From Escherichia coli O157:H7 (lineage in GTDB: Bacteria; Pseudomonadota; Gammaproteobacteria; Enterobacterales; Enterobacteriaceae): DNA of 64,000 nt. Under the pieces are notes generated by a model, which made no database searches, was not told the origin of the DNA, and worked only from the letters and a program-made list of their open reading frames with translations. The position numbers were made by a program, and so were the translations under genes. This document shows positions 4,660 through 5,352 of the stretch, one piece after another. Position 1 is the stretch's first letter. The number at the start of each line of letters is the position of its first letter. The stretch lies in the NCBI RefSeq assembly GCF_013167455.1, contig NZ_CP038328.1. The stretch is one strand, 5' to 3'.

Positions 4660-5352
4660 TCAATGTTGGACCGAATGTGAACGAATAAATAATTCGTTTA
4701 TTTTACCACCCATTCTCTTTTCGATTCGTTGCTTGTACGCGTAGATGCTACGGATATCCATATCCAGAACTTCAGCAATCTGATATGGATTATAACCAGA
4801 AACCATATACCCCATTATGGTGAATTCCATCTGAGTTAATGTGTTACCTCTGGTAAATGATAAATAACGACCAATAAATAGTTGTCTGATCTTTTCATTG
4901 GCAACATCAAGACCATCATCATTATATATGACAGCAGATATTGCAGAGTTGTGTTTTCGCCAGTAATTAGCTAACGATTGCATATTGCGGTCGCTGACTA
5001 AAACAATCCCCATGTCAGTACTTGCAAGATAGTCAATCCAGTCTTTTTCAAGGAATAGACGTAAAAAACTTACTGAAAAATCGACAAAAATATATCCGCT
5101 TAATCTCGCATTGTGGTTTTTTGTTAAGATACCTTCTACCACACCACGATTAAAATATGAACTTTCTTCGGTCCACATACAAAAACACGAGTTTGCGCAG
5201 TACTGCAAACGCGGTGACTCTTCTGGCATTATTTGGCAATGCATTGAGCAACTATTGCATGTAAGACTTTTATAACGACTACAAAGCCCCATGTTAAGAA
5301 CCTCCCTATCCGTATATAATTGCATAATTTCATTGGTGATTGATGATGTCAA
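4660..5352 (-). CDS. yqeH: LuxR/GerE-family transcriptional regulator with Cys-rich N-terminal region
   Basis: 230-aa ORF; C-terminal LuxR-type HTH (…YQIAEVLDMDIRSIYAYKQRIEKRMG…); N-terminal CNSCSMHC and CANSCFC motifs. Confidence 0.8.
   Translation of the reverse strand: MTSSITNEIMQLYTDREVLNMGLCSRYKSLTCNSCSMHCQIMPEESPRLQYCANSCFCMWTEESSYFNRGVVEGILTKNHNARLSGYIFVDFSVSFLRLFLEKDWIDYLASTDMGIVLVSDRNMQSLANYWRKHNSAISAVIYNDDGLDVANEKIRQLFIGRYLSFTRGNTLTQMEFTIMGYMVSGYNPYQIAEVLDMDIRSIYAYKQRIEKRMGGKINELFIRSHSVQH

Follow-up and report, generated by a model that had tools for sequence, protein, structure and literature searches.

A conserved four-cysteine module, predicted to bind metal, at the N-terminus of the EcpR-family regulator YqeH of Escherichia coli O157:H7

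The window analysed here, a stretch of 64,000 nucleotides from Escherichia coli O157:H7 (contig NZ_CP038328.1), takes in the edge of the ETT2 island (ETT2, the second type III secretion system of E. coli) as found in O157-type E. coli. By annotation the genes run ygeH-ygeG-yqeK-yqeJ-yqeI-yqeH-yqeG-yqeF-kduI. The GC content of ygeG-yqeK-yqeJ-yqeI-yqeH (to about position 6000) is 30-39%, that of yqeG about 42% and that from yqeF (about 7200) onward 50-54%, and this shift leads us to place the island boundary near yqeG/yqeF. Our subject is yqeH, a minus-strand gene; many O157 genomes match the 1.2 kb around it at 100% identity, and 4119 of 5426 complete E. coli genomes contain that segment. The gene and the EcpR/MatA family to which its product belongs are already known. 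We describe YqeH, with high confidence, as a protein of three parts: an N-terminal cysteine cap, a receiver-like domain and a helix-turn-helix (HTH). Four cysteines of the cap form a conserved module that probably binds a metal.

The open reading frame (ORF) of yqeH in a program-made list runs from a TTG at 5352 to 4660 (minus strand, 693 bp, 230 amino acids) and corresponds to the older Sakai annotation ECs3703 (PMC3977695). The original prediction, made from the DNA letters, gave the gene this same extent, which now appears too long. For O157 genomes with 100% identity over this region, RefSeq gives a 633-nt coding sequence that begins at the ATG at 5292 (WP_001310229.1). We prefer this form (4660..5292, minus strand, 210 amino acids plus the stop codon at 4660-4662) and consider its ATG the likely start, because a Shine-Dalgarno sequence GGGAGG lies upstream (5301..5306, minus strand, 8 nt 5' of the ATG, as read from the sequence), because orthologs of YqeH begin at the equivalent Met, and because the TTG at 5352 is itself the first three bases of a -35 element, TTGACA. 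That element belongs to a promoter-like site at 5324..5352 on the minus strand (-35 TTGACA at 5352-5347, a 17-nt spacer with TG, -10 AATTAT at 5329-5324). In a consensus scan the site has a perfect -35, matches at 10 of 12 positions and is the top score in the region, a consensus match only, in a region that has fewer such sites than its own shuffles. The first 20 codons of the 230-amino-acid frame (5293-5352) are probably untranslated, and residue numbers below refer to the 210-amino-acid protein.

Judged by its sequence, YqeH is an EcpR-family paralog that combines EcpR_N (PF27348) with a LuxR/GerE HTH. In precomputed annotation, PF27348 is assigned to all homologs and to E. coli YqeH entries that are 99% identical to the protein; our own Pfam scan, with a copy lacking this recent entry, returned a marginal GerE HTH only. 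The NCBIfam EcpR model (NF047921) aligns over positions 3-179 of its 180 to YqeH residues 31-202. YqeH is not EcpR itself by that model, however, as it scores 71 bits against a cut-off of 300 bits and neighbours yqeG and yqeI instead of ecp genes. In BLASTP, residues 39-201 are 26% identical to K-12 MatA/EcpR (b0294; E 4e-17), and the first ~38 residues of YqeH therefore lie beyond the region shared with MatA. The four-helix HTH (residues ~150-203; 4684..4845, minus strand) matches PF00196, so that the LuxR/GerE assignment made earlier holds; the word canonical does not suit it, as the domain is divergent and its Pfam score marginal. The protein also lacks an autoinducer-binding domain, as had been supposed: Pfam gives no match to PF03472, and SdiA and RhlR match YqeH over only ~80 residues, a length consistent with the HTH alone.

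The middle of the protein (residues ~37-140; 4873..5184, minus strand), the EcpR_N region, has a receiver-like fold of four strands and four helices. On the strength of an AlphaFold2 (AF2) model it is a truncated pseudo-receiver without a conserved phospho-acceptor. The fifth strand and helix of a receiver are missing in the model, and hence no conserved Lys can be identified. The Asp that ends strand 3 (D101), which was placed at the acceptor site by secondary-structure position and thus approximately, not by residue-level superposition, gives way to Ala in MatA and to Glu or Gly in a number of relatives. YqeH has no match to Pfam Response_reg, no kinase gene was found in the annotated neighbourhood of yqeH, and an hhalign comparison of the family profile with RcsB aligned the HTH alone. 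As far as the model shows, the receiver likeness is structural only. The original prediction had placed the cysteines in the N-terminal half, as a possible input domain in place of a receiver. They occupy instead an extension of 36-38 residues that precedes the receiver-like domain. It had also proposed that a standard receiver with unconserved cysteines would speak against a metal- or redox-sensing role; a receiver-like fold is indeed present, but the cysteines are conserved.

All seven cysteines of YqeH fall in the N-terminal module (residues 1-38; 5179..5292, minus strand) and none in the other 172 residues. Their codons lie on the minus strand at 5281-5283 (C4), 5257-5259 (C12), 5248-5250 (C15), 5236-5238 (C19), 5197-5199 (C32), 5185-5187 (C36) and 5179-5181 (C38). 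The two clusters first noticed in this frame, CNSCSMHC (C12-C19) and CANSCFC (C32-C38), were both recovered on the minus strand of yqeH. Taking a cysteine frequency of 1.1%, assumed for E. coli, the binomial probability of at least seven in 38 residues is about 2e-7. A HMMER scan of 1.84 billion representative sequences yielded 172 family members with at most 50% mutual identity, and a 2470-amino-acid match in this deep search (P0130) was rejected as a spurious repeat protein with two cysteines. About half of the 64 full-length members carry an extension of 35-40 residues bearing C-x2-C-x3-C-x(6-12)-C; among the rest, some have an extension without cysteines and others begin at a WP-x-x-N-x-YF motif.

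In 30 proteins aligned because their extension could be aligned (21-82% identity; P0092, P0108 and P0110 left out), C12, C15, C19 and C32 are invariant in the form C-x2-C-x3-C-x12-C. The only other invariant columns past Met1 are A108 and E156. The HTH was scored with zero invariant residues in the same alignment, so the four cysteines are better conserved than any HTH residue. The three variants left out retain the four cysteines with the fourth at a shifted position, and degenerate modules were seen only in P0069 and in the fragment P0084. The spacer to the fourth cysteine is 12 residues in 26 of the 30 carriers, and 28 of 30 have S or G just before the second cysteine, giving a metal-knuckle-like signature, C-[ILMV]-[SG]-C. 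On this sequence evidence the cluster is not a product of chance, because four of its cysteines stay invariant across 30 homologs with identities as low as 21%. The remaining three are more restricted: close relatives of YqeH (49-82% identity) keep C36 along with the four, and C38 in all but one. C36 and C38 together are specific to the YqeH clade, the P0060 clade and one plasmid-borne copy, C38 alone occurs in a wider subgroup, and C4 is specific to E. coli YqeH and not conserved.

These cysteines could in principle lie outside the protein, if translation began at Met39 (MWTEES...) and their codons formed an untranslated leader. Some annotations read this way, as the Citrobacter koseri entries are given as 195 amino acids from MWPEES and P0070 is called as 176 amino acids from a start inside the module. 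Both frames, however, are open further upstream to an ATG and encode the full motif. The frame of the C. koseri-type ortholog continues 38 codons further 5' with a six-cysteine module, for a true ORF of 233 amino acids (L017:2924-3625), and the in-frame sequence upstream of P0070 reads MRARITEKPRCLSCHFHCEV... (L019:1420-2031, start approximate). P0090 truly lacks the module, with stop codons upstream of its called start. Selection points the same way as the open frames. Over the 29 codons from C12 to W40, the proportion of differing sites between E. coli and five orthologs is 0.65-0.82 for synonymous sites (pS, saturated) and 0.08-0.35 for nonsynonymous sites (pN), and the next 100 codons have an equal pN (0.09-0.36). 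By this comparison, the cysteine segment is under purifying selection of the coding type, as strong as that on the body. A strong Shine-Dalgarno sequence precedes the ATG at 5292, and a deeper alignment gives a more confident model of the module, behaviour that fits a segment that truly folds. A start at Met39 is essentially excluded.

It follows from the same open frames that gene callers often start family members at an internal Met and so cut off the cysteine module; the finding accounts for what is a systematic error of annotation. Truncation is also common among E. coli yqeH entries (clusters P0013-P0015, P0012, P0018, P0032 and P0034), and some have a frameshifted N-terminus, MLNALPNNARRVTAFAVLRKLVFLYV..., in place of the module. 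Such entries agree with the reported mutational attrition of ETT2, though some may instead come from partial contigs.

The AF2 model depends on the alignment supplied. With nine close homologs, residues 1-64 fall below 50 in the predicted local distance difference test (pLDDT). With 75 diverse homologs, the mean pLDDT is 92.4 and the predicted template-modelling score is 0.89, with pLDDT 81-89 over the first 40 residues. This gain suggests that the fold of the module is supported by the alignment. The model shows a hairpin of strands 10-12 and 20-22, whose loop carries C12, C15 and C19, followed by a helix (29-35) that carries C32. The receiver-like domain comprises strand 37-40, helix 45-54, strand 67-72, helices 74-90, strand 95-100, helix 102-114, strand 118-123 and helix 128-140, and the four-helix HTH spans 154-203. 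No signal peptide or transmembrane segment was seen in the YqeH model.

We predict, from sequence and model together, that the four-cysteine module binds a metal, and we regard this as probable, because the knuckle-plus-helix arrangement is conserved, is under selection and is confidently modelled. That these cysteines are conserved and selected and resemble a metal site is borne out by the alignment (C12, C15, C19 and C32 invariant), by the low pN and by the pLDDT of this region. The identity of the metal is a more tentative matter. Zinc, as Zn(Cys)4, is our favourite because the module is small and compact and bears a knuckle signature, and zinc is the usual occupant of sites of this kind. 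It is only a modest favourite, and we would give it somewhat less than an even chance, because the cysteine layout is also that of FNR-type [4Fe-4S] sensors. We put the full account that we prefer, with zinc as the metal, at about even.

The main rival reading, a less likely one, is that the module holds an iron-sulfur (Fe-S) cluster, [4Fe-4S] or [2Fe-2S], labile to oxygen, nitric oxide (NO) or iron, which would make the protein a redox sensor of adhesin and virulence genes. The analogy is with FNR. In both cases a cysteine-rich N-terminal extension sits on a body that has cysteine-less paralogs, and FNR would stand to CRP as YqeH to MatA. The YqeH extension has three cysteines within eight residues and one distal, on a body without another sensor. 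Hydrophobic residues flank the cysteines (positions 13, 17 and 21), Pro23 is frequent, and the YqeH clade has C36, C38 and H18 in addition. The spacer to the fourth cysteine varies from 6 to 12 residues, some variants read C-x2-C-C-x2-C, and Fe-S sites tolerate such variation in spacing. Gut pathogens, moreover, couple adhesion to oxygen and NO. FNR differs, however, in having a CRP body fold and the spacing C-x2-C-x5-C plus C122, and it has no sequence similarity to the YqeH module. Searches of PDB sequences and Pfam gave no similarity to any Fe-S family, and the searchable literature offers no link of YqeH or EcpR to Fe-S. The compact knuckle-plus-helix of the AF2 model looks more like small zinc modules than like a cubane cradle, and among small N-terminal modules of four cysteines Zn(Cys)4 is commoner than Fe-S.

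Less probable again is that the cysteines bind no metal and serve as disulfides, as a thiol switch or merely as buried structural residues of a small cap. Four invariant cysteines could also be two conserved disulfides, and the neighbouring YqeI/YqeJ family does use conserved disulfides (PMC9214523). Those disulfides are periplasmic, however, whereas YqeH, with no signal peptide or transmembrane segment in its model and a DNA-binding HTH, should reside in the cytoplasm, a compartment in which stable disulfides are uncommon. A C-x-[SG]-C knuckle with strict spacing is, besides, typical of metal chelation.

Several points weigh against a metal site of importance in this protein, or against zinc in it. 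Both E. coli MatA and P0090 lack the module, which is thus not needed for the basic fold. Three close cysteines and one distal in an N-terminal extension make the layout of an FNR-type [4Fe-4S] site. By sequence, C-x2-C-x3-C-x12-C matches no described zinc or Fe-S family: a profile of 25 N-terminal modules found no match among PDB sequences at E up to 10, and the module gave only noise in Pfam (conotoxin, Tat, UPF0506). Decay of the O157 ETT2 is widely described, so that this copy of yqeH may be impaired. Finally, the O157 allele has Thr at codon 41 (5170-5172, minus strand), where the family has a near-invariant Pro in a W40-P41 motif directly after the module. The common E. coli yqeH allele has Pro41, and the exact 61-mer of the window around codon 41 occurs in only 295 of 4035 E. 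coli genomes. Judging by sequence, P41T next to the module may impair the O157 copy of YqeH.

With zinc as the preferred metal, YqeH would be a cytoplasmic transcription factor of the EcpR/MatA family working as follows. Residues 1-36 would form a hairpin-plus-helix cap in which C12 and C15 of the knuckle, C19 of the return strand and C32 of the helix converge on one metal centre. The metal would staple this cap to the first strand of the receiver-like domain (residues 37-140), which is truncated, would not be phosphorylated and would offer a surface for dimerisation or partner binding, and the HTH (residues 150-203) would bind DNA. Folding and activity would both depend on a filled site, and the metal would thus be a structural requirement at the least. 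C36, C38 and C4, which the E. coli protein has in addition, might make it a thiol- or metal-responsive switch. The data are explained just as well by a zinc site that is purely structural as by metal or redox sensing. By analogy with its relatives, YqeH is probably a local or accessory activator of genes for surface structures and virulence. It could also work with RcsB, as MatA and TviA do, both being auxiliary partners of RcsB (PMC5651002). Eight of the 30 module carriers weakly match the TviA model, and a partnership of YqeH with RcsB is possible on this analogy.

Comparison with known regulators places the module more precisely. MatA/EcpR, the regulator of the ecp/mat common-pilus operon, shares with YqeH the EcpR_N domain and LuxR HTH, the WP-x-x-N-x-YF start of the receiver-like domain and a PLANYW helix. 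It has, in contrast, a lead of 26 residues with a single Cys and no C-x2-C-x3-C, and YqeH is not beside a pilus operon in E. coli. The EcpR of Klebsiella pneumoniae (P0066) resembles YqeH in its three-part architecture, in C-x2-C-x3-C-x12-C and in an equivalent of C38; it differs in sequence (~31% identity), in lacking C36 and C4 and in being tied to the ecp operon, whereas yqeH adjoins yqeI/yqeJ at the edge of ETT2. RcsB, EvgA, DesR and VpsT (NarL/FixJ type) and the pseudo-receiver relatives CsgD and MrkE have the same two-domain fold, receiver-like plus LuxR HTH, but are only 12-17% identical to YqeH, and none has an N-terminal cysteine cap. The YqeH of Bacillus subtilis is an unrelated ribosome-assembly GTPase that shares only the gene name and an N-terminal motif of four cysteines, a zinc finger in that protein. 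Most of the searchable papers that join yqeH with iron-sulfur deal with this GTPase and not with the E. coli regulator.

The named carriers of the module all belong to the Enterobacteriaceae: Escherichia, C. koseri, several Enterobacter species, K. pneumoniae, K. oxytoca, K. michiganensis, Pluralibacter, Dryocola and Jejubacter. Many of their genes stand next to adhesin loci. P0066 of K. pneumoniae (618 cluster members) lies directly upstream of matB/ecpA-ecpB-ecpC-ecpD, and ecp-type operons adjoin P0070 and P0085. P0064 and P0042 (49% identical to YqeH) are upstream of chaperone-usher fimbrial operons, P0060 is upstream of an autotransporter gene, and in Enterobacter P0093 and its tandem paralog, which both carry the motif, are upstream of a type I secretion system in what may be an adhesin export locus. 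In Klebsiella the EcpR found in the position of EcpR thus carries the cysteine module, whereas the EcpR of E. coli is without it. In a neighbour-joining tree of the body region, carriers are spread across one large clade, mixed with cysteine-less members, and the deepest branches lack the extension. The tree is rough, with long branches and several wrong automatic state labels, and is a hint only; it is suggestive of a module gained once and then lost repeatedly.

The four-cysteine module of YqeH, Klebsiella EcpR and the other adhesin-linked regulators appears to be previously undescribed in the literature searched, as does its frequent omission through mis-annotation. Neither cysteines nor metals are brought up for YqeH or EcpR in the searchable literature, which covers few subscription journals, and the domain structure of the two proteins goes undiscussed there. 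Both proteins are cited as regulators of virulence and adhesion in E. coli and Klebsiella. In the case of YqeH, deletion in avian pathogenic E. coli lowers motility, biofilm formation, adhesion and virulence (PMC9014576), deletion of yqeH reduces espE3 transcription (PMC10463865), and deletion of dctR reduces yqeH transcription (PMC8259166). These phenotypic papers mention neither its domains nor its cysteines. The conserved module offers a concrete and testable handle on what YqeH and EcpR respond to, and on a possible tie of adhesin expression to zinc, iron or redox state. If an Fe-S cluster were present, YqeH, Klebsiella EcpR and the Enterobacter and Citrobacter paralogs would be direct redox sensors on a pseudo-receiver scaffold. 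They would then form a new class of Fe-S transcription factor, coupling the expression of pili, autotransporters and adhesins of type I secretion systems to the oxygen gradient at the gut wall.

Downstream of yqeH on the minus strand lie yqeI (3517-4326) and yqeJ (3041-3520), whose reading frames overlap by 4 nt. Published work identifies them as the orthologs of MarT/FidL, a co-component signalling pair in the membrane of Salmonella by which the MisL autotransporter is activated (PMC9214523). Genes like yqeI and yqeJ also adjoin the yqeH ortholog on the C. koseri-type contig (L017:1085-2234), and no type III secretion gene was called on this 6.3-kb contig. Because the yqeH-yqeI-yqeJ adjacency recurs on a contig without a called secretion gene, we suggest that the three genes are a cassette separable from ETT2. 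If yqeH moves with yqeI/yqeJ apart from ETT2, the phenotypes attributed to an ETT2 regulator would be read differently.

Some observations on the wider family are added here. The tandem Enterobacter EcpR_N paralogs (L009/L010) lie at 6001-6663 and 6819-7454 of their region, with genes for an ABC transporter, a membrane-fusion protein and an outer-membrane protein downstream. We considered whether P0060 is IpuR of uropathogenic E. coli (PMC6083910) and rejected this, as P0060 has no near match in E. coli genomes, only a distant and mostly plasmid-borne relative. One Klebsiella cluster member is labelled RmbA, which hinted at rmbA of Salmonella pathogenicity island 3, but a protein search returned no Salmonella entries. 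On plasmid pCTXM14_020022 (NZ_CP032888.1, L016:6001-6630), in an ISCR1 / class 1 integron setting, the gene that directly follows blaCTX-M-14 downstream encodes a YqeH-like protein with six cysteines (WP_024266332.1). Seventeen E. coli genomes have a similar copy, in most cases on a plasmid. The gene probably hitchhiked with the beta-lactamase gene from a chromosomal source, which we guess to be Kluyvera. In K-12, the ecp/matA operon is flanked by ykgJ (854-1183 of the K-12 ecp region, L011), which encodes a putative metal-chelating domain protein, and by ykgM/ykgO (9375-9778), annotated as L31B and L36B, which we take to be the zinc-independent, Zur-regulated forms of these ribosomal proteins. 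These metal-themed neighbours are curious, though probably a coincidence.

The remaining signals concern the transcription of yqeH. A genomic SELEX (systematic evolution of ligands by exponential enrichment) study of K-12 reports a peak of the sigma-S (RpoS) holoenzyme in the yqeG-yqeH spacer (PMC5493296). Past the yqeH stop codon, by 34 nt, is a terminator-like hairpin (4599..4626, minus strand), whose stem has 12 bp and whose loop has 4 nt, followed by a tail rich in U. Its folding energy is -20.8 kcal/mol (z -3.2), a stability that 0 of 200 shuffles equal. A simple terminator scan did not call it, as it has four rather than five U in the scored window. A second and strong terminator-like hairpin, with a 16-bp stem, follows the yqeG stop codon (5707-5741, minus strand) and lies between yqeG and the yqeH promoter region. 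With a hairpin past its own stop and a strong one past yqeG, yqeH looks like its own transcription unit at the sequence level.

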